Shown: positions 1,108 through 56,000 of the stretch, one piece after another | How positions within the stretch are numbered: the stretch's first letter is position 1 | Layout of the letters: each line of letters starts with the position of its first letter | DNA from: a virus | Length of the DNA stretch: 64,000 nucleotides | IMG/VR virus record: IMGVR_UViG_3300009183_000003 | Location: 2,724 to 66,723 of that record | Strand: one strand, 5' to 3' | Notes under the pieces: generated by a model | Told to the model about the DNA's origin: nothing | The model's input: the letters and a program-made list of their open reading frames with translations, nothing else | Database searches by the model: none | Program-made: the position numbers and the translations under genes

Positions 1108-1140
1108 TTTGTAATTACAAAAGATTATTTTGTATATTTG
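1108..1140 (+). promoter_or_regulatory. Bacteroidota primary-sigma promoter (-33 TTTG / -7 TAnnTTTG)
   Basis: TTTG 1108-1111, 21-nt spacer, TATATTTG 1133-1140. Confidence 0.8.
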
Positions 1141-1144
1141 CAAT

Positions 1145-1222
1145 GTTCAATTGTTTCTCATAGATTTATTGATTATTTATTTAGGTTACAGATAAGGGGG
1201 AGCAATCCTCCTTATTTGTTTT
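1145..1222 (+). ncRNA. candidate small RNA 1 (promoter-to-terminator transcript, ~78 nt)
   Basis: Consensus promoter immediately upstream, U-rich body, 13-bp GCAA-capped hairpin 1189-1218 followed by TTTT. Confidence 0.5.
1189..1222 (+). terminator. intrinsic terminator
   Basis: CAGATAAGGGGGA-GCAA-TCCTCCTTATTTG then TTTT. Confidence 0.75.
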
Positions 1223-1235
1223 AAACACAACGCCT

Positions 1236-7623: not shown

Positions 7624-7644
7624 GTTATTTATTGTGTTAAGTTA

Positions 7645-9945: not shown

Positions 9946-9982
9946 TGTCTTAGATTTTTAATTTATTGATTTTGATTTTTGA

Positions 9983-14450: not shown

Positions 14451-14705
14451 TTAATTCCAATCTAAGATTTGTAACATCTCTGCATAAGGAGTGTGCAAGA
14501 TGAAAAATTCACCGCTGGTTAAGTACACAGCACACATATCTGGGTTTATCTCTTCGTCCTCATCGTCTGCAAATTGTCTTACAGCAATAATGTTTTCTGT
14601 GGGTATGCGTACCTCTGCTCTTATGGTGTGCTTTCCGCTACCGATGAGTTCAGCCATTTTAGTATTGAGCAACTCAATCTCGGCAGTTATAAACTTTTTG
14701 GTCAT
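14451..14705 (-). CDS. FlbD-like small beta protein
   Basis: I..ENIIAV......VYL.SGE.F....PY.E pattern; TATATTTG promoter at 14740-14747 on the minus strand. Confidence 0.55.
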   Translation of the reverse strand: MTKKFITAEIELLNTKMAELIGSGKHTIRAEVRIPTENIIAVRQFADDEDEEINPDMCAVYLTSGEFFILHTPYAEMLQILDWN

Positions 14706-14813
14706 AGATTATTTTTTGATTTAGTTATTGTGTGTTTTGCAAATATATTAACATTTTTGGAATTATTGCAATACGCATTTGTGCGTATTAATCTGCCCAT
14801 ATCCAAAAGCCAA

Positions 14814-25033: not shown

Positions 25034-25169
25034 TTTTGTTGTGTGTTAATTCTTCGCAAATATACATTATACAAATCAAAATCCTAATAATATTTTATAA
25101 ACAACAATGTTAAAAACTATTTGAAGAACCTTTCAATATAATTTATACATTTGTGAAAATTATATAACA

Positions 25170-25508
25170 ATGAACATTAAAGGAAAAATCAAATCGGTAG
25201 GCAGCACCGAACAAAAGAGTGCCAAATTTTCTGTTAGAACATTTGTCCTAGAACTAGAGGGTAAGTACCCGGAGTTAGTAGAGTTCCAATTAGTAAATGA
25301 CAACACACTCCTAATCAACCCATTCTCATCAGGGGACGAAATCGAAGTCGAGTTCAACCTGAAAGGAAGGGAGTACAACGGAAGAGTCTACAACTCTCTC
25401 CAGGTTTGGAAAATAACAGGGGAATCAAAACCAAAAAATGAATCCACACCAAAAGCAGAAAGTCCGCAGGGAGAATCTGAAAAGTCAGAGGAAGACCTCC
25501 CCTTCTAA
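25170..25508 (+). CDS. ssb: DUF3127-family single-stranded DNA-binding protein
   Basis: F..R.FVL....KYP....FQ......GD.IEV.FNL.GRE...YNSL..WKI and acidic EDLPF tail; promoter TACATTTG 25146-25153. Confidence 0.85.
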   Translation: MNIKGKIKSVGSTEQKSAKFSVRTFVLELEGKYPELVEFQLVNDNTLLINPFSSGDEIEVEFNLKGREYNGRVYNSLQVWKITGESKPKNESTPKAESPQGESEKSEEDLPF

Positions 25509-25517
25509 TATAAAAAC

Positions 25518-25545
25518 AAAGTCCCCCTTATTTAGGGGGATTTTT
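25518..25545 (+). terminator. intrinsic terminator
   Basis: TCCCCCT-TATTT-AGGGGGA followed by TTTTT. Confidence 0.75.
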
Positions 25546-25569
25546 GTATTTTTGGATAAAATTAACAGT

Positions 25570-25923
25570 ATGTTCTTTAAGTCCAAGAAAAGAAGAGAAG
25601 AGGAAGAGGATGATAAAAAACCTCTTCCAGTGCTTTGCAGTACCGTCTGCGTAGTATGGAACACCGAAGAAGAAATTGAAGGCAATCCTGGTCAAGGGCT
25701 ATACGCTGAATATGTGCCTATAATATTTGATATAACCAAAGTTGCTGCTATACAAGCAGACGTGGAGTTTCGTAACGATGGTTCAGCGTCTATAGGTTCA
25801 AGAACTTTAGTGTACATTATTGGATCAACAGACCCTCTGATTATTGACGCTCCGTATAAATCGTTTTTAGAATATTTTACACTTTTAAAATCTAACGAGT
25901 TTCATAACAACGCAAACTACTAA
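25570..25923 (+). CDS. FlbD-like hypothetical protein (start revised to ATG 25570)
   Basis: FDITKVAAIQ....TLVYI.G.....IDAPY..F; promoter TATTTTTG 25547-25554. Confidence 0.55.
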   Translation: MFFKSKKRREEEEDDKKPLPVLCSTVCVVWNTEEEIEGNPGQGLYAEYVPIIFDITKVAAIQADVEFRNDGSASIGSRTLVYIIGSTDPLIIDAPYKSFLEYFTLLKSNEFHNNANY

Positions 25924-25940
25924 GTCTTTAAATCAGCTAT

Positions 25941-27098
25941 ATGACAATCCAAAAACTAGTACAGATACTCCACGCTAGACCAGGTTACTTAAAGTCAGGT
26001 CCAAGTTATATAGCAAGAAAATTTAAGGTTAGTCTACAAGATGCTACCGCAGCTTTAAAAGCCGCAAGAGTAGATAGAAAACAAGTTAATAGAAAGGTTG
26101 TAAAGGTTGAGTTGTCCAATGATTCTGATAATGTTATAACCGAGTTCGAACAGTATTTAGATAAAAATGGTATTGACCACTCGATGGTTAATTCTGTTAA
26201 ATACTGGCAAAATATGAAAGGAGAACAAAGGTTCTCTGTAGTAACCAAAAGTGACAGAAGAGCAGAAGAGATTCAAAAAGACATTGAAGAGTTTGCGGCT
26301 AGTTATAGTCCTAAAGCTAGAGTAATAACTAAAGGTAGAAGACCTGACTACAAAGTGAAGTCAACTTTAGAAATTTCTCTTCCCGATATTCACTATGGAA
26401 AGTTAACAGATATTACACTAGAGGAAATGGAAAAACAATTCCTTGATACAATTGAGGACTTAGTTAATAAGGGAAGAGGTTTAAATATTGAAAGAGTTCT
26501 GCTACCAATCGGAAACGATGGAATGAATACAGATGGCATGAGAATGGCTACAACAAAAGGCACTCCTCAGCATGATGTAATCGGATGGAAAGAATCATTT
26601 AAAGGTTACTGGACTTTAATAGTTAGAGCAGTAGATTTCTTAAAAGATGTAGCTCCAGTTGATATAATTGTTGTATCGGGGAACCATGACTACGAAAGAA
26701 TGTTTTATGCCGGAGATGTTTTAGCAGGTTGGTATCGTAATGATCCAAATGTTTCTGTAGACAACTCCACAATGCCTAGAAAATATTATAAGTACGGAAA
26801 AAACATGATAATGTTTACTCATGGAGATAATGAGAAGCCTTCTGATATGCCACTAATAATGGCTACCGAGCAACCGGAAATGTTTGCGTCAACTGAGTTT
26901 AGAGAAGCTCATTGTGGTCATTACCATAAAGAACAAGTAAACGAATACCGAGGTGTTAAGGTGAGATTCCTCCCTTCAATATGTGCGTTAGATGAATGGC
27001 ATAAAAAAATGGGTTACCAAGCACTAAGAACAGCCCAGGCGTTTATTTGGAACCATGACGAGGGCCTTGAAGGATATTTACAGAGTAATGTTAAATAA
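25941..27098 (+). CDS. calcineurin-like metallophosphoesterase
   Basis: PDIHYG, GND...D, GNHD, THGD, GHYH motifs. Confidence 0.9.
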   Translation: MTIQKLVQILHARPGYLKSGPSYIARKFKVSLQDATAALKAARVDRKQVNRKVVKVELSNDSDNVITEFEQYLDKNGIDHSMVNSVKYWQNMKGEQRFSVVTKSDRRAEEIQKDIEEFAASYSPKARVITKGRRPDYKVKSTLEISLPDIHYGKLTDITLEEMEKQFLDTIEDLVNKGRGLNIERVLLPIGNDGMNTDGMRMATTKGTPQHDVIGWKESFKGYWTLIVRAVDFLKDVAPVDIIVVSGNHDYERMFYAGDVLAGWYRNDPNVSVDNSTMPRKYYKYGKNMIMFTHGDNEKPSDMPLIMATEQPEMFASTEFREAHCGHYHKEQVNEYRGVKVRFLPSICALDEWHKKMGYQALRTAQAFIWNHDEGLEGYLQSNVK

Positions 27099-27204
27099 AA
27101 TTATGAAATTATACATTTTGTCATTCAATACTGCCTATGAGACAGAAAATATTAAGAAGGCAATATTGTTGCTCCCCACATTTACACAAGTACGAGATCA
27201 CTAA

Positions 27205-27285
27205 CAAAAAATGGGAACCGTTGTCCCCATTTTCTGCACACAAATAAAGAACACAATAACAAAAATCAAGCATCAGAACGATGCC
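27205..27285 (-). ncRNA. candidate small RNA 2 (promoter-to-terminator transcript, ~80 nt)
   Basis: TACTTTTG at 27289-27296 on the minus strand; 5' hairpin GCAUC/GAUGC; U/G-rich body; terminator 27206-27233. Confidence 0.5.
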
Positions 27286-27336
27286 GTACAAAAGTACACC
27301 AATTCATTCACAAAAAACACACTTAATATTTTCAAA

Positions 27337-27963
27337 ATGAAGTATTTGAATTATTTGCCAGTAGTTATGAAATCAAAAGATCATCTCGCTGATGGAGTTG
27401 ACATTGGAGACAAAAGAATTCACATGGTTATTAGAATAGCCTCCGAAGAGGCTGACTACTGGACAAACACAGATTGTGTTGTTTTTGAAGACTTTGGTAA
27501 GTGGAAAAAAGGAGACGAGGTGTTTGTTAAATACGTTGAGATTAGAGAAGTTGTTGGGGCATATAGCGAGGGAAAAAACAAGCGTGTTATTGATGTTGGT
27601 AATCAGGAAGTTTTATTAGTTAGACCCGACCTTGTGTATTTAACGATGAGAGATGGTGAATTCATTCCTCAAGATGGATGGTGTTTAATTAAAAGAGTTC
27701 TTGAGAAACCTAAGACATCTTTACTTATTGTGCCAGAAATGTATGACGAGAAGTATAAAGAAAATGAGTGGGAAATAATTGCCGTTGGTGGACCTTCTCC
27801 TGAAAGTGAGCGTGCATACGGAAAGGATGCCTTACCTCCTATAGGTAAAATTATATTAGGAAAGGATAGTGCTGGAATTCCATTAGAGGCAGGACTAAAC
27901 AAAAAGTTGAAAGAAGAGTATCATCTTATCAGACACAATGAAATATTAGCGTATGAAGTTTGA
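27337..27963 (+). CDS. tandem GroES-like protein (start revised to ATG 27337)
   Basis: C-terminal half P..GWCLIK...SLLIVP....IIAVG....YHLIRHNEILA is Cpn10-like; N-terminal half has a second degenerate copy (KKGDEVFV). Confidence 0.65.
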   Translation: MKYLNYLPVVMKSKDHLADGVDIGDKRIHMVIRIASEEADYWTNTDCVVFEDFGKWKKGDEVFVKYVEIREVVGAYSEGKNKRVIDVGNQEVLLVRPDLVYLTMRDGEFIPQDGWCLIKRVLEKPKTSLLIVPEMYDEKYKENEWEIIAVGGPSPESERAYGKDALPPIGKIILGKDSAGIPLEAGLNKKLKEEYHLIRHNEILAYEV

Positions 27964-28618
27964 ACATAATGAGTTTAACAAACTAAAATACCCGATTCAT
28001 AAAATACCATTAGGCACACCTGTGCTTTTTGAGTTCTCTGACTTATCTAAGTTCTCCATAATATTTGCGGCAAACGATTTACCTAAGAAGTTAGATCCCG
28101 ATATTGTTATGCGGTACTTGATTTATATGTACGACTTAGGTTCTCCAGGTCAGGGTATTCCTGATTTGAAGAGAAGAAAAGTGTGGGCATTGCAATGTTT
28201 AAACCTTGAGCCTCCATACGATGATGTGATTAAGGATATGCTCAACTGGAAAATTAAGGGGGTAAATAGAAGGGCAATATATTTCCTTATGTTGATGGGT
28301 GGTGAGCAATACATGGTTTGGAAGTCTGCTGAAGAGGCTCTCTTGCGTTATACAGAATTAGAGATTAAATTAGAGGCTGAAGATGAAGTTGCTCAAGCTA
28401 AAATAGTTCAGGCAGAAAAGACTCGAAGAGAAATTATTAATATGACCATGAGTCAAATTACAGCTTCAAAGACTCAATTCCTACAAGGTGAAAAGAGTAA
28501 GGAACTAGAGGAAGAGTTGACCGAGTTTACTTTATTAGACTCTTTAGGCATAAGACCTGAAGAGTATATTCGTGAATTTGAACAAAATGGTGATGTATTC
28601 CCAGAGATAGATGCGTGA
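27953..28618 (+). CDS. hypothetical protein, candidate terminase small subunit
   Basis: Helical 221 aa overlapping the terL start; positional evidence only. Confidence 0.4.
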   Translation: MKFEHNEFNKLKYPIHKIPLGTPVLFEFSDLSKFSIIFAANDLPKKLDPDIVMRYLIYMYDLGSPGQGIPDLKRRKVWALQCLNLEPPYDDVIKDMLNWKIKGVNRRAIYFLMLMGGEQYMVWKSAEEALLRYTELEIKLEAEDEVAQAKIVQAEKTRREIINMTMSQITASKTQFLQGEKSKELEEELTEFTLLDSLGIRPEEYIREFEQNGDVFPEIDA

Positions 28619-31019
28619 AGTAAAATATAAATACAACCGACCCGAAGAGTTCATTGTTGTTAATAACGATGATGAGGACTTGTACCCAACAAAAATAAAA
28701 GTCCCCACTCTTGAGGAGTATTATAAATTACCTTACGAAGAGGCAATAAAAAAAGTTGAAGGGTATGGACTTCCTCCCGAAAAACAGAAGTTTACATACC
28801 AGGATATGCCGTCAAAGTTAGTAGAGATTGAGTCTATTATCCGTAGAAAGAAACAGATGAAGCCTAAGGATGTTGTGAAGTTAGAGGATATTGATGAGGA
28901 GTTATTTAATGATGTTTCCCATTATTCAAAAGAAATAAATTGGATTAAGAGACAAATCAAAAGGCACTACAAGGGTTATTTCTTTTTCAATAATGGCACC
29001 CCAACATATATGCCTGGGTGTCAGTACACATATCTAAACTATTGGCCAATTGGTAACGGAAGAAATACAAAGGGATTAGCGGAATATAGAGACAGGGATA
29101 GGAAGTGGTTCTTGACTGTTATGTATGCGTACACAACGCAAGAGGCTTTCTATAAGTTTAAGGTTGTTTACCTTGAAAAGAAAAAGAGTTATGTTCGTTA
29201 CTTCAATATGCAAAAAAGCGTGGATGAGTTTAAAGAAAAGCATCCTGATTGTTATGTAGAAAAAGGAGAGTACACGATAGATACAGGCGAGAGAACAACT
29301 TACGGAGTAATCTACCCAAAACACCGAAGAGAGGGGGCAACCTCTCGTGCAGGTTTTATGAATTGGTATGTGACGGCAACCCTAGGTATACAAAGGTTTG
29401 GAGGTATACAAAGTATGTCGGACTACCACTCTACTCAAGTGTTTGTGGACCACATTGCAAAGCGTCTCCGCAGAATGCCCTTCTTCTTTAAGTTAATGAC
29501 GGAAGGTTCTTCTGTTCCAAAGGAAGCGATACAATTTACAGCACCTGCAAATAGAACAGCAGGCGGTGTTGGAACAACTTCTCTACCTCCACACGAGGGT
29601 TGGATAAATCACCGACCATCTGGAGAGAGAGCTTATGACATGGAAAAACTTCACTTTATTCACCACGATGAGGTTGGAAAGATTGACCCCAAAGCAGGTA
29701 TTAACATTAATGTTGTTGATAGATGGAGAGTTGTTATGAAGTGTCTCGCACAGGGACCATACATTCATGGCATCGGTCTCCTCACCTCGACATTAGGTGA
29801 GATGGAAAAGGGTGGTGGTGAGCAAATGAAAAAACTTATTCTAGGATCTCGCTTTAACGAAAGGAACGACAACGGGCAAACAATGACAGGACTTCTCACT
29901 CTATTCTTTCCTGCCCATGATGGTTTGGATGGTTTTATTGACGAGTTCGGAAACTCTATTATTGAAGACCCGGAGAAGCCAACAAAGAATGTTGATGGAA
30001 AATTTGTTTCGATGGGAGCAAAGACCTATCTCCAAAATAAACGAAGAGCGTTTGAAATGAACGGAGACCAAACAGGGCTTATTGAAGAGATGCAAAACTT
30101 TCCAATGAACTTAAAGGAGTGCTTTATGTCAGCATCGAAAGACTCTTCTTTCCCTGTCCTCAAGATAAGAAAAAGAATTACAGAGTTGACTTTTGAAAAA
30201 CACAAAACTCGTAGGTACAACTTTGAGTGGGAAAATGGAAGATGCTCAAAAGTAAAACTTGTTGAAGATGATGAGGGTAAGTTTATCATCTCATATCTTC
30301 CTCCATCAGGGGCAAGAAACCTGAAAGAGTGGGACTCTGACTTAGAGTCTTGGAAGCCAGCTTGGACTGTTATGAGTAAGTTTGTGATGGGGGCTGACCC
30401 TGCTAAATACGAATCCCATGAAGTAAGCGGTAAGAAAAAGTCTTACAACGCAGGCGCAATGTATTACAAGAAAGATGATCACCTTGACGGGGATACAGGT
30501 CTGCTTATTAAGCCAAGAGGAATGTGGGCATCCGATAAGTTTGTCCTCACTTATAAACAAAGAGATGTTGGAAGAGAGGAATATTGCGATGATATGGCAA
30601 AGGCTTGTATGTTTTTTGGAGCAATGTTATACCCCGAGATGAATATTACCTTCCTTTACGAAAAGTTTTTAGAGTGGGGTTTAAAAGGATATCTCTTATA
30701 CGACATGGACGAAAATGGATTCAGAAAGCCACTTCCAGGAAGGATAACTACAGACGGCTCAAGTAATTCTGCAAAGCAAGACATCTTTGATTGTTGGGAA
30801 CATTACTTAAAAAATGGCGTTGAAGGAGAGAACCACATTGAGGTTTTAGAGGAGTGTGCTAACATTGACGGCAAGCAAGAAATGACAAAATACGATTTAT
30901 TTGCTGCTGGAGGCTACGCACTTTTGGGAAGTAAGTCAGTTTACCCTAAATTTGTAGAATTAAATGAGCAGTCTATGAATATAGATTCAAAACTTTTTGA
31001 TACATTTGATTATTATTAA
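28611..31019 (+). CDS. terL: terminase large subunit, crAss-like
   Basis: Walker A PKHRREGAT, Walker B HHDEVGK, E....P....E.F, RNase H GADP; 802 aa. Confidence 0.92.
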   Translation: MREVKYKYNRPEEFIVVNNDDEDLYPTKIKVPTLEEYYKLPYEEAIKKVEGYGLPPEKQKFTYQDMPSKLVEIESIIRRKKQMKPKDVVKLEDIDEELFNDVSHYSKEINWIKRQIKRHYKGYFFFNNGTPTYMPGCQYTYLNYWPIGNGRNTKGLAEYRDRDRKWFLTVMYAYTTQEAFYKFKVVYLEKKKSYVRYFNMQKSVDEFKEKHPDCYVEKGEYTIDTGERTTYGVIYPKHRREGATSRAGFMNWYVTATLGIQRFGGIQSMSDYHSTQVFVDHIAKRLRRMPFFFKLMTEGSSVPKEAIQFTAPANRTAGGVGTTSLPPHEGWINHRPSGERAYDMEKLHFIHHDEVGKIDPKAGININVVDRWRVVMKCLAQGPYIHGIGLLTSTLGEMEKGGGEQMKKLILGSRFNERNDNGQTMTGLLTLFFPAHDGLDGFIDEFGNSIIEDPEKPTKNVDGKFVSMGAKTYLQNKRRAFEMNGDQTGLIEEMQNFPMNLKECFMSASKDSSFPVLKIRKRITELTFEKHKTRRYNFEWENGRCSKVKLVEDDEGKFIISYLPPSGARNLKEWDSDLESWKPAWTVMSKFVMGADPAKYESHEVSGKKKSYNAGAMYYKKDDHLDGDTGLLIKPRGMWASDKFVLTYKQRDVGREEYCDDMAKACMFFGAMLYPEMNITFLYEKFLEWGLKGYLLYDMDENGFRKPLPGRITTDGSSNSAKQDIFDCWEHYLKNGVEGENHIEVLEECANIDGKQEMTKYDLFAAGGYALLGSKSVYPKFVELNEQSMNIDSKLFDTFDYY

Positions 31020-36045: not shown

Positions 36046-36072
36046 CCTTAGGTTATCTTATACTGTAATAAA

Positions 36073-36098
36073 AGGGGGAGGGGAAACTCTCCCCCCTA
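36073..36098 (+). terminator. GC-rich hairpin after the capsid gene
   Basis: GGGGGAGGG-GAAA-CTCTCCCCC; weak U tract. Confidence 0.6.
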
Positions 36099-36144
36099 AT
36101 TACAAAAACACACACAAAATAAAAACAATAATAAATTTACAACT

Positions 36145-37032: not shown

Positions 37033-37063
37033 AAATGGGGTACTTTTGTACCCTATTTTTTTT
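37033..37063 (+). terminator. intrinsic terminator abutting the next promoter
   Basis: GGGGTAC-TTTT-GTACCCT plus T tract running into TATCTTTG (37063-37070). Confidence 0.75.
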
Positions 37064-47072: not shown

Positions 47073-50000
47073 ATGGCAACCTTACAAGACCTCTTTAACG
47101 AAATACAAGCAGATTCTAGAATTTCAAATCCTCCTACATTTGAAGACTTTCAATCTAAAATGGAAGACCCTGCATATGCAGAAAGAGTTAATGAAATATT
47201 AGGTAGAAACGGCTACGATGTAAACGCTTACGAGGGATTAAAAAAAAAAGAGGAGTCTATGGTCGAATCTGCTCCGCTATCTCAGCAGGAGTCAGAGCAG
47301 CCAAGCGAAACTACAGAGCCAACCCAGACGGTTGGTACTGAGCCTACACAAGAAGTAGTTACAGAGCAAGTAATTGAAAAGCCAGTCTTTTCAGCACCTG
47401 CTCCTATAAATACAATTTCTCCATTTAAAAAGAAAAAACCGCAAGAAACTAAAGAGGAACTTGCGGCAAAAGCAGTTCCGTTTGACGATTCTTATAACGT
47501 ATCTATGGGTTATTTCAACCCAACAACTAATAAGGTTGAGGTGCTTGTAGAGCCAAAAGAAGAGGGGTCTTTTCCCTACACTCAAGTTGTTGACGCAGGT
47601 GATCCTTGGTTAGAGTCTGTAAAGAAGACCTTTCCTGGAATGGCTATGTACGCTGATGAGAAGGAATGGAAAACCGCCTCTGCTCAAAAGATGGCAAAGG
47701 AAGAGAATGCAATTCCCCCAACTAGCTTAGGTGCTTTGCCTATGACGCCTGTGGATATTAGCGGAAGAAAGGCAGGTCCTTTAGGAAAGATAATTCAAAA
47801 AACATTTGGTTGGGATGACGCTAGATTAGAGCAATTTTATACAGACCAAGATAAAAGGAAGGCAAACAGAACTCCATTGGAAGTTTGGGGGTCTGAGTTC
47901 AATAAGTTTTTAAAGGGTTCAAAAGATGTTGCTGAAATACAACAAGCAAAAGAATGGGTAAAGCAAGAAAATATTGCTAACGCCACAGCCGCAAAAGAAA
48001 AGTATGAATTTGTATTTTCAAATGGTCGCAGCAATTTAAATCACGATAAAAATGCAATATTAGAAGAGTATGCCACCAACCCAGATGCAGCGTATTCTAA
48101 GTTTAAAAACTTTAGGTCGGACGTTACCCTTGATTATTACGATGCTGAAGAAAGGTATTTAAATAATAAAGGTGAAGATCAAGACCAAATTAGGTTTGAA
48201 AGGTCAAAATACGAGGCTTTAATTAATGACGAGCGTAACGGAAAAGATTTAGACCGAGTTGATGAGCAGTTTATTCAAGCACAAGAATCTCGTGCAATGA
48301 ATGCTTACTCTAACACCCTTGGCTCTGATGTTACTCTATTAACATCAACCAAAGAGTACGAGAAGGCATCCAAGGATTTAAGAATTACAAACTTTAAAAT
48401 TGTACAGGCTCAAAAAAGACTACAAGAGTTAGGTTATGATGTTGCTGGGAAAGCTATAGAGGAACAAGGTAAAACATTAACCCAACAACAAATTGAGGCA
48501 AAAAAATATGCCGATGAGATGACCTCGTTAAACGATGACTATGAGGAGTTTACTACACCATTAACATCTCGTCAAGATGTTATCAACAAGAGAATAGAAG
48601 AGTTGCAAACCAAAGGAGAGGTTACGAGAGAAGAAGAGGCGGAATATTCTCAATTGGTTGAAGAGTTCAATGCTATTAATGAGCAAGTTAACGCCAAGAC
48701 TTTAAATTACACAACGTCTTGGGGAAAAGCCCAAGAAAATTACAACAAGTATTATACTGAATCAAATGCTCTTTACCAAACAATTAAAGAGCAAGAAAAG
48801 AAAATAAATGACCCCGAGGTTCAAGCGTTAGTTAAAATTATTAACAACGCTAATGACGAAAAGAATTTTGTAATAAACCAAACCGGAGTAGATGCGGCAG
48901 CGATTTCTGACTTGACTATGGCTGCTGACAGAGTTGACTTAGTTAGTAAGTTAAATGAAAGATCTAAAGGTCATGAGGAATCTTCTGTAAATCGTTTTGA
49001 CGATATTCGTGAGAGAGAGAAGATGGATTTCTATATTAATTTGTATGGAAAAGTTGCTGACGAAGCGGTGGGATCACCTTTTGTTAGTGGGGCTGTAGAG
49101 TTTACTAAAGGTGCTGTTAATACCGCATATAAAATGGCATCTGGATTGTTATTTAGTCCTGTTTATATTGCTAATTTATTTGCCGCTGACGATGAGTATT
49201 CTGAAATGGACAGGGTTACGGAAACTTTATCAGACGCAAGCACGGTGTTAGACCCATTCACATCGGTTAGAAGCGATGCTGACATGGTTGACAAGATATT
49301 AAACGCTACAGGTGGTGCAGCAGTTCAAATGGCGGCAATGGCTACAGGCTCAGGAGTTTTAATGGAGGGTGGTATGGGTGTTATGGCGGCCCAAACCGTT
49401 ACAACTTTCATGTCCTCTTTCCCAATGAACTACCAAGACAATATCAACTCGGGAATGAATCCAATGGACGCTAGAAACATTGCTTTGATGAACACCGCTA
49501 CTGATGTTTTATTAGAAGGAATATATGGCGAGGGTAAAATTTACAAGGCAATAAGAGCTAGTCGTTCAAGTGCTATTAAAGAGGGTATTAAGGCTGGTAA
49601 AAATGTAGACGAAATAATGGCTGACTTTTATAAGTCTCTACCAAAAGAAGTTGCTGATAAAGCTAAAGACGTGGGAGTTAGAGCTGTTGCAATAGTTGAG
49701 GGAGCAGCTTTAAACGCTTTTGAAGAAACTACTCAAATGGTAGGTCAGAAAGCTACAAACCGAGCGTATAACTATATAAACGATGGCTCTGTAGCTGAAG
49801 TGGAGACTAATGGAGAAGAGGTAATATTAACAACTATACCTGCCTTATTATTAGGGGGAGCAGGTAACGCTACTATAGACATTGCCTCTACACAATCAAG
49901 AGACGCTTTATCAGAAGGAATTTTATATGTAGGAGCAAATAGCAACAACTTTTTATCAGAGATAGAAAAACAAGTACCAGACTTTTATAACGAGAATAAA

Positions 50001-53000
50001 AAGCAATTAGAAGAAATTTCAATGGTTGCTAAAGAGTCTCAGAAGTTACCCGGATACGCTAACCTAGACGCTAACTTAAAGGCTCACGTTTTATCTGAGA
50101 CAATCAGAAAAAAGAACCTTGAGGCAGCCATGAAAAACTTTGGTTTGGAAGACCCTAAAACTAAAGAGGAAATAGCAAACATTGATACTGAAATAAAACA
50201 AATTCTCGCAGGAGAAAAAACATCAACTATAACCGAAACACCACAAGAAAATGCCGTACAAGAGCCAAGCACAGGAGAAGTTCTTCAACGCCAACCGCAA
50301 GAAGTTGGAGAAGCAGGGAGTCAACGTAAAGGAGTGGAACCAGTCCTCGAAGGGGAAGGTACTACCCAAGAAGTTGGGAAAGAAGAAATAGTAGCCACTC
50401 CACAAGAAGCCAAAGAACAAGAGGCGATGCAAAATGACATCGACCAAGTTCAGCAGTCGACAGGCACCGTTATTAATTTAAACGAGGACGGGACTCTTAC
50501 TATCAACGCTCCTCAAAGAGGTGGTCAGTCTAAAAAAGACGCTGCCATTGAGAACGCTAAACAAGAGTTGACTAACCTTGGTTACAATGTCGAGAGTAGA
50601 GTTGTACAACCTACTCAACAAGAAGTTGTACAAGAGGAAGTACAACCCGAGATTACAGACGAAGAGTTTGACAACTCAATCAAAGAGGCTGAGGGAATGG
50701 GTGTGGTTGCTGGTTCCGAGGCAATAGCTGACTTACAAACTCGTACTGCCCAAGACCCGAAGAAGGGTAAGATTGTTTCTCAAGCGTCTCGTGCAGTACA
50801 AGCACTTAAGTCATTATTCCCAAACATGAACATTGTCCTCCATGAGAATGATGAGTCATATAACAACGCAATGGGAACTTTAGGGGGTACGGCTAACACT
50901 CGTGGTCAGTTTGTGTATAAGCCTACTGCCGATGGTAACATCCAAGGTGCTGTGCATATCAACCTTGACAGAGCAAACGCAAGAACAATTGCTCACGAGG
51001 TTACTCACGCTGCTCTCCTCAAGATGTTCAAAGGAGATGGAAAGGTGTTCGGAAACTTTAAAGACAAGTTAAAGGACATTGCCAAGAACCAAAAGATGGT
51101 TATCACAGACAAGGAAGGCAACCAAGTAGAAACTACATGGGGAGACGAGGCTGAGAAACTATCTAGCAGATACCAAACAGAAGATCAGGCAGAAGAATAT
51201 CTATCTGAACTTGCAGGTCTTGTTGCGGAGATGGATACAGAGAATCCTACTAACAAGAGCATACTTCAAAAGATTGCCGAGTTCATCAACAAGTTTATTT
51301 TGAGTAACCCTCAACTTAACGCTTTAGGTATAAAGCCAATTACTGATACATCTTCTGCGGAAGAGGTGTTGGAATTCTTCGACACTCTTGGTAAGAAGAT
51401 TTCTAGAGGAGAGGAGATTAAAGAATTTGATGACGTGAACTCACTTGGTCTTAGTGGTAAAGTTAATGTCTCTGAAGGTGTAAAGTCTAAAAGTTCAATA
51501 GACTCCGGTGAAATAAAAAGGTTTCCTGTCAACCCAAACACAAGGGTTGAAGAGGGTGTTCCTTTAGAGCAATTCAACGGAAAGAGAGTTAACCTAATGG
51601 AGTCAGATCGTATGACGGGTGGTTACATAAGCGACTCTGAGGGTAACCCCTTGTTTAAATTTTACGGGGGTGTATTTTACCCTGTAATTACAGGAAAGTG
51701 GTGGGCTTCAAGAAACAAGATGAAGGCAAAAGGAATCGCTGAAAACGCAAACAAAAACAGAGACAAGGACGGGTATATTTATTCCGCTCCTATGATTGGC
51801 TCAGACAAGCAACACATGAGCAACACAGATATGTTGACCGTCACTGTTGAGCTGATGAAGTTTGACGCTAATTCAAAAACATCAAAGGTTAAAAAAGCTG
51901 ACGTTATAAGTTACATTGACAAGGCGTTTAGTAATAAGAGTGTTCAAGGCAAAAAAGCTGTAGTAAAAACTGTCTTGAAAAAGTCAAACAATATAAATGA
52001 ATTATTTAATGAGTTGGAGTTTGTCTTGTTCCAAGAGGGGGATAAGATATTAGACAAGAACGGAAGTCCGATATTGGACGAGAATAAAAAGCCAATATCA
52101 AACTTTACGTTTGAGGAAAGGTTAGCAATAGTTAACTCTATCTTAGGAGACCCAAAAGTTAAAGAAGCAAGATTCCCATCGGCAGGGTCTATATCAGACG
52201 CTGCTAAAAGATTTGAAGAGCCAATTACGGCAAAGGCTAACAAGATAGGGGACTTGGTTACCATAATGAGAACTAAAGGCACTTTACAATACAAAACATC
52301 CGAGGTTAATGACGACTTTTATCACAAGTCTTACCCAGAAGAAATTTATGCCGTTAACGAAGACGGCTCCCCTGCTGAGATTGAAGTGTATGTATTAGAA
52401 GGGGCTTATAGCATGAACGATGTTTTGCCTTCTTTAACTCAGTCTAGCGGAAAAGAGTTTACATGGGACGAGTATTTAGAAAAACACAAGTCTGAAAATT
52501 TAGCAATAGCTCAATACAACAGAACTGCTAAATTAAGTAGTGCGTCCGGTGAAATCAAATCAGGCGTTAAGACAAAGTCTCAAATGGATGACGTTCAGCG
52601 TACAGCACAGATGTACAACATGAGCGAGCAAGGTTTCTTTCCAAAGAACGCTGACGAGTTTAAGATTAACAAGGACTTTGAAAAGTTTGGTTTAAAATCA
52701 AAGAGAGCAAACCCTACTAATTTTGGTCCAGGTTCTCTATACTTAGTTAACCAATCAGGAAGAAAGGTTAATCCATTTGGAGTAAAAAGAAAAGCTCAAA
52801 TTGATATTGACGCAGCAGAGAGTCCTCTATACCAAACGAGAACTAAAGAGGATGTGCCTTTTGTATCTAACGAGCAAGTTAGAAATGATGTGCCTAAGAT
52901 GGATGCGACTACTCGTCAGACGGAGGCAAAGAATATTAAGATTGAGCCAGGAATGTTAGTGGGTTCTCGAATAAACATTAACGCATCTAAGTCATTGGGT

Positions 53001-56000
53001 TACCCTGTACTTACTATTCACCATACATTTGATAAAGGCAAACCTCAAAAAGAAAATCCAAACGCTTCAAAAGGAGAGGCAATTGGACAGAGAGGTAACG
53101 TAACCCTCTCCAATGTAAACTTCAACGTAAGTCAGAGCGAAAGAAATAAGATTGCTGAAGGTCGTGCAAAGGGAGTAATGGCTATGGCAGTTGGTCGAGT
53201 GATGGATGTTGAACCAAACTTTGATGGAGTTGAACTCTCGTTTAATCCTAATCGTGAACATTTATTTGTCGATTCTGAAGGAAGGGCAGTTAAATCAGCA
53301 GAAGAAGTTACTGTTATGGGATTCAAGGCTTACGCTCGTGGTAAGATAACTTACTTTGAAGATTTTGAAGACCCAAGAAGTCCTAAGTATACAGCACCAT
53401 CTCAAACCAAGTTTGCTAAAACAAAAGAAGAACTTGTTAAGATGGCTGACGATGTAGATACCGGCAACACAACTGTTGAAGAGGTTGGTGTTCCAGAGTT
53501 AGCACCCGAAGTAGTTGCCGAGGCGATTACCGCTTTCTCTGATGCTATTGAAAATGGTTCTACTATTGAAGAGGCTACAGAAGAGGTTGCGCTTATTTTG
53601 GAGAATAGTGCTGAAGAAGGTCCTCGCAAAGTAACTCCTCCATCAGAAAAGACAGAGCCTGTTTCTGCAAATAAAAAAGAGGAGAAGCCTAAGGCAGAGA
53701 AAAAAGAAAAGGTTGTAGGTCCTATACTAAGCGACTCGGAAACTATCGTTGCCTTCACTATTGCAGGAAACGCCAAGTCTATCATGGACACTACTGGAGT
53801 TGCTCAAGCAGATGCAGTTAACGAAGCGGTCCTTGAAATTACCAACGGGGACCAAGAGTCTGCTGATAGATACTTAGCTCAACCAGGAATTAAAGAGGCG
53901 GTCAATAACAAGATAAAACAGATTAAGGCGAAGACTGCAAGAGAGTTAGAGGCTGAGTCTCCAAAGATTACAATTAGTGAGCGTAAACTTCTTTTGGACA
54001 GAGTTAAGGCAGAAATCAAAGCTGCTCTTGAAGGTCGCAAAGAAGGTAAGAAAGAAGGGGTGGAACAAGCTACTGAAAAAGCTCAAAAGACAATTGATGC
54101 TCTAAATAAAAAGTTAGAGGAAGGAAAGATTACTAAGCAAGAGTTGCAAGACAGAATCAAAGAGCTTGGCTATAACATCCGATTTGAGGCTGGAGTTGCA
54201 AGACTTGCAGGAGAGAAGACTGGAAAGTCTATGGGTAAAAAGTTTGGAGAGTTTGTTGGGTACTTCAAGGGACTCAAGGCAGGAAGAACTGAGCAGAGAG
54301 GTTTGGGTGCTTTAGTATCTGAGTACATAAAAGACGTGGTGGACAATGAGTTTGGCAAGAAGGGTACCGTCTCTCCCGCTACATTGAAGTCTATTGCTCG
54401 TAGAGCAGCAACTATCTCTAACCAAAAACAATTGGATGCCTTTGTGTCTTACTTGGATAAGGTTATTGCAAACAGAAGACTCGCTGAAGGATTAAATGAA
54501 ATCAAGAAACTTCAGAAGCAGTTGTTAAACAAGGTTGGGTATCAGTACACATCTAACATGAAGATGTTTGCCAAGTTCGATATGTTTACAGCGGACGGAG
54601 ACTTAGCGTTTGATATGCTTACCATGACTGAATACTTAGACGCTCTTCGTGACTTGACTAGCGATAGAGTACCAAAGATTGGCAAGATGATGGAATTGTT
54701 TGACGATATGTACGACATCAACCAACAGAACCAGCCTGCGCTTAAAACCGCAATTGACTCACTTAATGAATGGCAAATAGCAGTAAATAAGTTGTTTAAT
54801 ACCGCTAAAGATATCATTGTTCAAAACAACGGAGTGGTTGATCTAGCCGAATCTTTTCAAAACTATAGGGCATTTAAATCTAATGTAAAGAAATACACAA
54901 ACGCACTTGATGAGTTACTAGTCACAGGCATGATTAGTGAATCTGACTACGAAAGGATGTTTAATGATGTTATTGAAAAATCTGCTGTTACAGATACTTA
55001 CGCTTCTGAGTTCCAAGACCAAATAGATGAGTTGAAGAAGATGTTGATAGACGGTATCACAGACAAAGGTGATTATGGATTTATGGACTCAATCAAGGAT
55101 TGGTTGAGTAATTCTCCTAACTCATTTACGGAAAATCAAAAGAAATTGATTGACCAGTTAATGAGAGCGACTCCTAAAAACTTGATGACTTTAAGTCTTG
55201 AGGATCTTGACTTGTTAAACCAAGTTACTGCTCAGATTGCTGAGGCAGGATTTGTTGACGAAAAGAATTTAAGAACCCTATTAGATCGTGCAGAAATTAG
55301 AGGCAACGAGGTTGGTAAGAGTTTAGTTGAGCAGTCTCAAAAAGTTCGTAACAAATACTCAAACCCTAAGAATGGATACATCAAGATGATGAGAGACACT
55401 CTAGGAAAGAGCGTTGTGTTCTGGGAGTCTCGACTAGGAATGAAAGAGAATGGTGCTTTCAGAAAGCATTTGATAGACCCAATCGTAAGAGCAATCAACG
55501 GATGGGAGAAAGACTCTCAACGAATTCTAAAAGACTATCAAAGAAAAGTTGATAAAATTAGGGGCATAAATATTTTAAAGAAACCTTCGGATATTAAAAA
55601 ACTTATCAACAGAACCAAGATTGAAAAGTTTAAGTTAACCACCGATGGAACTTTGGTCCCTAACGGAACAGTGAAGGTGTCAAAAGACGCTTACGATAGA
55701 GTAATGATTGGTGTTGTTGGACACATACTTAACAACGCATGGAATGCTAAACAGAAGAAGAAAACTGTTAACGATTGGTTGGGTAAGCAGATACTTAGTG
55801 CGGAGCAAAGAAATAAGATGCAGAACGAGGATGTCAACGAGTTGGATATTGTAAATAATATTTACAACGACTTGAAGCAGATGTTTCCTGACGGAAATGG
55901 AGGGTTGGACCACATGGCAGTCCTAGAAGCATTTGAATCAGATCCTACATCTATTCTTACAAGCAATCAGTTGGAGTATTACAAAGCTGCACAAAGTGCC

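Follow-up and report, generated by a model that had tools for sequence, protein, structure and literature searches.

The intergenic gap at positions 27205-27336 of the analysed viral DNA (64,000 nucleotides, hereafter the window) very probably carries a functional element, judging from its conservation among related phages. The gap lies on a long arm of plus-strand genes, between an open reading frame (ORF) at 27103-27204 and a gene starting at 27337. On the minus strand, it is probably the gene for a non-coding RNA of ~79 nt, running from 27284 to about 27206. Such an RNA would probably be a phage cis-antisense or small regulatory RNA without an Rfam family. We further propose, tentatively, that the RNA controls in cis the passage from replication to packaging genes; this combined reading, RNA gene and antisense role together, is the best of those considered, at slightly less than even odds.

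The window comprises bases 2724-66723 of a virus record of 66,723 bp, which has direct terminal repeats and is rated complete. Upstream of the element lie the plus-strand genes of the replication module. These are the SSB gene (25170-25508; phrog_4932), an unnamed gene and the gene for a 385-aa exonuclease (25941-27098; phrog_704, E 1.4e-61), which is the last full replication-module gene before the element. An ORF at 25438-25923 overlaps the SSB gene and the SSB terminator, and a conserved promoter box at 25547 together with a conserved ATG at 25570 suggests that its true start is at 25570. The 33-codon ORF at 27103-27204, which ends at the hairpin, corresponds to the C-terminal end (last ~30 codons) of 292-aa ORFs in relatives (tblastn). 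These 292-aa exonuclease ORFs match phrog_7339 (L074:1483-2361, L081:1510-2388) and in many relatives occupy the place of the 33-codon ORF. In the lineage of the window, the 385-aa exonuclease has displaced the 292-aa exonuclease, leaving the 3' end of the older gene in front of the conserved hairpin.

Downstream, also on the plus strand, the 208-aa gene (27337-27963) is the first gene of the packaging and structural arm, and the C-terminal half of its product is weakly GroES-like (phrog_3188, E 0.003). It is followed by a 221-aa gene (27953-28618), by TerL (28611-31019; phrog_6681), by the portal (phrog_6547) and then by a capsid-like protein. Further along, the structural arm contains a single ORF of 3777 codons (47073-58406). 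Among cultured phages, the closest TerL matches, at ~25% identity, come from phages of Flavobacterium, Cellulophaga and Maribacter, and the host is thus likely a member of the Bacteroidota. A DNA search with 25900-29000 against cultured phage records gave no match. A crAss-like label for the phage was considered and dropped for want of supporting evidence.

Architecture and conservation of the minus-strand element

Read on the minus strand, the element opens with TACTTTTG at 27296-27289, a -7 promoter box of the Bacteroidota sigma-A type (TAnnTTTG). The predicted transcription start (G 27284) is the first base of a 5'-terminal stem-loop, GCAUC-GUUCU-GAUGC (27284-27270), which is indicated by folding and by comparison. 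An unpaired, variable U/G-rich linker (27269-27251) leads to a conserved single-stranded core (27250-27237), in which UAUUUGUGUG runs into CAGAAA. The unit closes with an intrinsic terminator (27237-27204), whose core UGGGGAC/GUUCCCA with the loop AACG (27229-27212) is followed by U6 (27211-27206). This 7-bp core sits inside a 15-bp helix with outer pairs between an A-tract and a U-tract, and the minus strand thus has the stable G+C-rich hairpin and subsequent U tract of an intrinsic terminator. The preliminary description of this DNA had listed the box, the 5' hairpin, a U/G-rich body and a terminator with a U tract in a gap between plus-strand genes, and all of them are present. In the 102-nt minus-strand fold, the z-score is -2.6 and 3/200 shuffled sequences fold equally well; taken alone, the fold is modest evidence.

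Across the whole window, Rfam 15 gave no match at the gathering threshold; the best local hit was STnc390, with 18.7 bits against a gathering score of 50. ARAGORN found no tRNA or tmRNA. A coding reading of the minus-strand ORF 27121-27291 (in-frame ATG at 27273) was rejected, as the ORF runs through the terminator and is broken by 7- or 10-nt indels. Between the sequence groups described below, indels of 1, 3, 4, 7 and 10 nt occur, and the ATG is absent in groups B and D. The element is considered non-coding because the indels are not confined to multiples of three and no ORF is conserved.

Related loci were collected through the flanking proteins (17 by the 208-aa protein, 41 by the exonuclease and 34 by alignment of the 208-aa protein), and blastn with the gap sequence matched 29 loci with 16 distinct sequences. 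A covariance-type search of related gaps had been suggested in the preliminary description as a check, and a homology model of this kind (R1, built from 15 blastn-matched sequences) recovered the element in 10/10 further, more distant loci of the 208-aa gene. A degenerate pattern of the terminator core located the element in 35 viral contigs and 13 metagenome contigs, and had no exact match in 185,579 prokaryote species, represented by one genome each. In total, the set comprises 49 stretches including the window (48 relatives, one stretch cut by a contig end) with 29 distinct sequences. Loci found by the pattern are preselected for fixed terminator bases; therefore, the appropriate sample for terminator invariance is the set of 21 distinct sequences obtained via flanking proteins. 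All loci that were fetched through the 208-aa gene and contain enough upstream sequence have the element ahead of this gene, and it accompanies the 208-aa gene regardless of which exonuclease is encoded upstream. Downstream of exonuclease homologues in other contexts (28 loci: L030-L046, L048-L054 and L056-L058), model R1 found nothing convincing (best E 0.62).

The sequences fall into four groups. Group A, which includes the window, has the box TACTTTTG and the 5' hairpin GCAUC-GUUCU-GAUGC. Group B shares the box and has the hairpin GGACU-GUUCU-RGUCC and a linker shorter by 7 or 10 nt. Group C, again with TACTTTTG, has the GCAUC hairpin with a G-C outer pair and a different linker, and group D combines TAATTTTG or TACATTTG with the hairpin GCUC-GUUCU-GAGC. 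In group B the exonuclease is 94-96% identical to that of the window, the 208-aa protein only 49-53% and TerL only 76-77%, and in group D the 208-aa protein is 52% identical. Given these low identities of flanking proteins, the hairpin and the box have been kept while the surrounding genome diverged strongly. The segment 27205-27250 is 87-93% identical between groups, where the flanks are 58-89% identical, and the core UUGUGUGCAGAAA is invariant in 21/21 distinct sequences found via flanking proteins. The linker (27251-27268) is the least conserved part, with 28-61% identity to groups B, C and D.

Comparison also bears on base pairing. In a MAFFT alignment, made independently of structure (15 sequences, 13 distinct), the 21 modelled pairs amount to 273 cells, and 273/273 form standard pairs when read on the minus strand; shifting the partners by 1-3 columns lowers this to 44-58%. 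Alignments fitted to the model, which hence lean towards it, give 440/440 paired cells for the 21 distinct protein-anchored sequences, with six pairs changing on both sides, and 597/598 stem cells for the 29 distinct sequences. The sole failure occurs in one sequence and affects the outermost pair of the modelled 5' hairpin, a position that lies before the predicted +1. The 5' stem occurs in three versions (GCAUC/GAUGC, GGACU/RGUCC and GCUC/GAGC), always with the loop GUUCU (AUUCU in one variant), and five of its six modelled pairs change on both sides. In the terminator, all 15 pairs are kept in the 29 distinct sequences, with one compensatory series (AU/GU/GC). After comparison with relatives, the architecture as a whole thus appears far beyond chance.

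The promoter box follows the same trend. TAnnTTTG is kept in 28/28 full-length distinct sequences and varies at the two free positions only (TACTTTTG in 24, TAATTTTG in 2 and TACATTTG in 2), also where the adjoining 208-aa protein is only 48-53% identical. Taken alone, the box is not above chance: the 64-kb window holds 49 occurrences on the plus and 33 on the minus strand, simulated sequences hold ~35 +/- 6 per strand, and one TAnnTTTG is expected about every 1.8 kb per strand. In the account of Flavobacterium psychrophilum transcription in PMC9723704, the box spans -12 to -5. Applied to the element, this spacing would place +1 at G 27284. In each of the groups A-D the predicted start coincides with the opening base of the 5' stem, although the sequence of the spacer between box and stem differs.

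Bacteroidota sigma-A promoters also have a -33 TTTG, spaced by about 19-21 nt from the -7 box. At this spacing, no TTTG precedes the box of the element; in group A, 14 nt separate the nearest one from the box, and no TTTG is present in group D. In contrast, a promoter at 1133 of the window has TTTG-N21-TATATTTG. The commonest box variant in the phage is TATATTTG and not TACTTTTG; this and the lack of a correctly spaced TTTG count against the promoter reading. Sense boxes, mostly TATATTTG or TACATTTG, at 25146, 31001, 37063, 44848, 47049 and 58409 (+) lie 22-30 nt before at least six start codons (25170, 31023, 37089, 44871, 47073 and 58439), which implies leaders of only about 10-18 nt for many phage genes.

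RNAalifold proposed a mini-hairpin over the box, GUAC-UUUU-GUAC, which covaries between groups A and B and is unpaired in C and D. It was set aside, since the promoter reading suits all four groups. A 12-mer of the same region, GTACTTTTGTAC, recurs at 37036-37053 (+), where it makes up the loop and the inner part of the stem in a good terminator (GGGGTAC-TTTT-GTACCC, then T8); this loop varies in relatives.

Transcription setting and possible modes of action

Eight representatives of all four groups were compared from 1.9 kb upstream of the 208-aa start to approximately the TerL start (1.3 kb downstream). Only two TAnnTTTG boxes are positionally conserved in this region. One is a plus-strand box at 25547-25554, just after the SSB terminator, which lies at about -1720 to -1790 from the 208-aa start in 8/8 representatives, and the other is the element's own minus-strand box (8/8). 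Between the hairpin and TerL, none of the eight has a positionally conserved plus-strand box of this promoter type. The absence of this one type of promoter suggests read-through on the plus strand: the 208-aa gene, the 221-aa gene and TerL lack a canonical promoter and are therefore probably expressed by transcription across the exonuclease gene and the element. Box 25547 would be the probable source of these transcripts.

Given such read-through of the element by plus-strand mRNA, the RNA would most likely be a cis-antisense regulator of the passage from replication to packaging genes. We envisage that host sigma-A RNA polymerase starts at TAnnTTTG, so that the transcript would begin exactly at the base of the 5' stem-loop, which probably shields the 5' end of the RNA. 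Transcription would end at an intrinsic terminator tuned to the minus strand only. The RNA would thus be made head-on within a plus-strand unit that starts at promoter 25547 among the replication genes, includes the exonuclease gene and continues into packaging with the 208-aa gene, the 221-aa gene and TerL, and the RNA would be fully complementary to the intercistronic stretch of the read-through mRNA. Control might be exerted by duplex formation and subsequent cleavage, by collision of converging polymerases, or by both. The probable target operon in cis consists of the 208-aa gene, the gene at 27953-28618 and TerL.

A role purely in cis does not account for all of the conservation. The GUUCU loop and the core UUGUGUGCAGAAA are conserved in sequence beyond the needs of pairing. 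Antisense action leaves this unexplained, as an antisense RNA of any sequence complements its target; the conservation hints at a partner protein or at a target in trans. Many trans-acting small RNAs consist of a 5' hairpin, an unpaired U-rich stretch and a terminator, and the element has the same architecture. The RNA might hence be real and act in trans, with the core (UAUUUGUGUG and its surroundings) or the GUUCU loop pairing with host or phage mRNAs or binding a protein. We consider this unlikely, mainly in view of the search for phage targets described below.

A second element of the window, at 1121-1228 (+), was cited in support of such a system. This unit runs from a promoter (TTTG-N21-TATATTTG) through ~80 nt of body to a terminator, GGGGGAG/CUCCUCC, whose end lies 14 nt short of the ATG at 1236, and it is probably the first small RNA of the preliminary description, to which the present element had been likened. 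Of this likeness, a single match to model R1 stands, too weak to establish paralogy (24.1 bits, E 0.026). Body and terminator of 1121-1228 are conserved in the related genomes G001 and G002, and the 5' hairpin is not kept in G002.

The preliminary description had seen in the two RNAs an anti-leader system directed at A/C-rich leaders, with the linker as targeting segment. The matches that it quoted do exist (TTGATTTAGTTATTGTGT at 14716-14733, TTGATTTTTG at 9972-9981 and TTATTGTGTT at 7629-7638) and are at the level of shuffled sequences. Shuffled controls, which it had itself recommended for target prediction, give this outcome in every test on phage targets within the window. The rest of the window contains 14 exact 10-mers complementary to the body, compared with 14.3 +/- 6.5 for dinucleotide shuffles, and complementary 11-mers and 12-mers are below the shuffle mean. 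The best gapped local score is 28 (shuffles 29.5 +/- 2.8; 76% of 200 shuffles reach 28), and the best-scoring local matches fall at places other than those named earlier. Among 86 translation-start regions, the element's own locus excepted, the best duplex has -19.2 kcal/mol against a shuffle minimum of -20.5 +/- 1.8. The leader of gene 14451-14705, the proposed target, reaches -17.1, which is matched by 5% of shuffles for that gene alone. Pairing of the body with start regions equals that with intragenic segments (-11.85 vs -11.85 kcal/mol, p = 0.46). The complement of the core, CTGCACACAA, has three matches with at most one mismatch, one of which is the element itself, where 3.7 are expected. 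Thus, no phage target stands out by 10-mers, local scores, duplexes or core complement.

Conservation also argues against the proposed targets. The seed (27251-27268) is deleted in group B and is the least conserved segment, at 28-61% identity compared with 87-93% for 27205-27250. A search of five related records for a homologue of gene 14451-14705 came back empty, which by itself proves nothing, and three whole related records have no blastn match to 14451-14693, though both flanks match; a record with an identical RNA body is among those lacking the gene. In G001 and G002, the conserved promoter and leader of this gene precede a different, unrelated first gene (MKTKRTVFIYN...). The promoter and leader (14706-14760, minus strand) are 82-93% conserved in these two genomes, an instance of cassette exchange behind a fixed promoter. 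The anti-leader system therefore finds no support: its complementarity is at chance level, its seed varies and its target gene is missing in relatives. The likeness noted earlier is one of low-complexity, A/C-rich stretches resembling one another. A fuller trans model, in which the invariant core and the GUUCU loop serve to recognise mRNAs of the host or one of its RNA-binding proteins and the RNA may cooperate with 1121-1228, seems very unlikely to us.

Strand preference and readings without a regulatory RNA

The features of the gap might also be read on the plus strand, without any minus-strand RNA. The segment 27205-27236 would then terminate the exonuclease operon or stabilise its 3' end, the second hairpin (loop AGAAC) and the A/C tract would form the leader of the 208-aa gene, and the box would be incidental. 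Several observations are compatible with this. The terminator hairpin lies 0-12 nt past the upstream stop codon in all relatives, A/C-rich tracts precede other phage genes as well (e.g., 36099-36144), the plus strand folds too (z = -2.9) with both hairpins still formed, and a single box is, at the frequency given above, no surprise.

Pairing separates the two strands. With the structure mirrored to the plus strand in the same MAFFT alignment, only 81.3% of the cells pair; the 18.7% that fail are all A.C, corresponding to G.U on the minus strand, where no cell is mismatched. Six pair positions vary between Watson-Crick and G.U on the minus strand among the 29 distinct sequences. Since the plus strand is rich in A and C at this place, a general drift of composition towards these bases would likewise yield A.C mismatches, and the asymmetry is thus not wholly independent of composition. 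The SSB and capsid-gene terminators were intended as positive controls for the G.U test and have too little one-sided variation to be informative. Stability points in the same direction. Folded by itself, the terminator core has the lower energy in its minus-strand version in 28/28 distinct sequences (mean -10.9 vs -9.5 kcal/mol); for the 5' hairpin, 17 sequences favour the minus strand, 11 show no difference and none favours the plus strand. Moreover, 7/8 of the first bases after the stem are T on the minus strand compared with 4/8 on the plus strand, where the tail reads UUUUCUGC or CUUUCUGC. Two sequences (L020 and L029) would retain only 4/6 pairs of the second hairpin on the plus strand.

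Furthermore, the box survives in four diverged groups at a fixed distance to the stem, with changes at its free positions alone, which an incidental box would not explain. An efficient plus-strand terminator at this place would also cut off the promoter-less packaging genes, whereas a strong minus-strand and poor plus-strand terminator fits the stopping of a small RNA while the mRNA passes. Together, the comparison favours the minus strand over a plus-strand terminator and leader, and we regard the latter as distinctly unlikely. The small-RNA transcription unit on the minus strand, as first described, thereby gains comparative support from pairing (273/273 vs 81.3% of cells) and from terminator stability.

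Alternatively, a minus-strand RNA might be made without having a role of its own, with the terminator as an insulator that keeps antisense transcription from an internal promoter out of the replication genes. Pervasive antisense transcription is described as common in flavobacteria (PMC9723704), and the hairpin at 36070-36098, after the capsid-like gene, likewise has a T tract only on the minus strand. One would expect a useless promoter to disappear, not to be insulated; instead, box, spacing, pairing and loop are kept across lineages whose flanking protein is ~50% identical. An insulator therefore appears highly improbable. On the plus strand, the hairpin at 36070-36098 is preceded by an A tract and lacks a T tract behind it. 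A 45-nt A/C-rich tract then leads to the next ATG, and no minus-strand TAnnTTTG lies near the hairpin.

Finally, a linker for homologous recombination between exchangeable modules, not an RNA, would suit the mosaic junction, with two unrelated exonuclease genes upstream of the same element and, in group B, a 94-96% identical exonuclease joined to a 49-53% identical 208-aa protein, and is compatible with the RNA readings; as an explanation in its own right it is barely credible, since it predicts neither compensatory changes nor imperfections restricted to G.U, neither a constant loop on variable stems nor a kept TAnnTTTG.

Relation to known phage and bacterial RNAs

To our knowledge, nearly all described small RNAs of phages come from enterobacterial phages and a few other models, and the Bacteroidota are, as far as we know, a phylum without Hfq/ProQ-type paradigms. 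A full-text literature search, judged by titles and the opening of abstracts, yielded no such RNA described in a Bacteroidota phage. The terms 'Bacteroid' and 'Flavobacteri' do not occur in the main text of a 2025 review of phage small RNAs (PMC12197685). The element belongs to a lineage of uncultured phages with at least 48 related contigs and is located at the junction of replication and packaging genes, and its comparative support is unusually clean, combining covariation, strand asymmetry and a promoter that varies at its free positions. If confirmed, it would offer a tractable case in which phages that infect an ecologically dominant phylum control their middle-to-late transition by antisense RNA, and a natural one-way terminator. 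If the trans reading were true, it would point to small-RNA-based reprogramming of host expression by Bacteroidota phages. The anti-leader reading, in turn, has been traced to low-complexity matches.

The closest functional parallels might be the OOP RNA of phage lambda and the sar RNA of P22, which are described as short antisense phage RNAs with their own promoter, of constitutive type, and intrinsic terminator that act by duplex formation, with RNase III-dependent cleavage in the case of OOP (PMC12197685). Like these, the element is a short non-coding unit on the opposite strand with a predicted promoter and terminator of its own. Unlike OOP and sar, which overlap a coding region or a ribosome-binding site, it overlaps an intercistronic stretch ~50 nt before the next start codon. 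OOP and sar take part in lysis-lysogeny decisions of temperate enterobacterial phages, whereas the element lies at a replication/packaging junction, and no lysogeny genes were noticed in the window. It also differs in its Bacteroidota-type promoter and has no sequence or Rfam relationship to them.

Within the Bacteroidota, the Rfp RNAs of F. psychrophilum are described as short structured non-coding transcripts, many of them antisense, with TAnnTTTG at -12 to -5 (PMC9723704), and the same article cites cis-encoded small RNAs of polysaccharide loci in Bacteroides. The element has the same promoter type as these RNAs; those are chromosomal, whereas the element is phage-borne. With terminators shared by convergent units, the element has in common a G+C-rich hairpin between converging units, with an A tract at one flank and a T tract at the opposite flank. 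In contrast to such terminators, it is asymmetric in 28/28 distinct sequences: the minus strand pairs perfectly and continues into U6, whereas the plus strand has A.C mismatches and the tail UUUUCU or CUUUCU.
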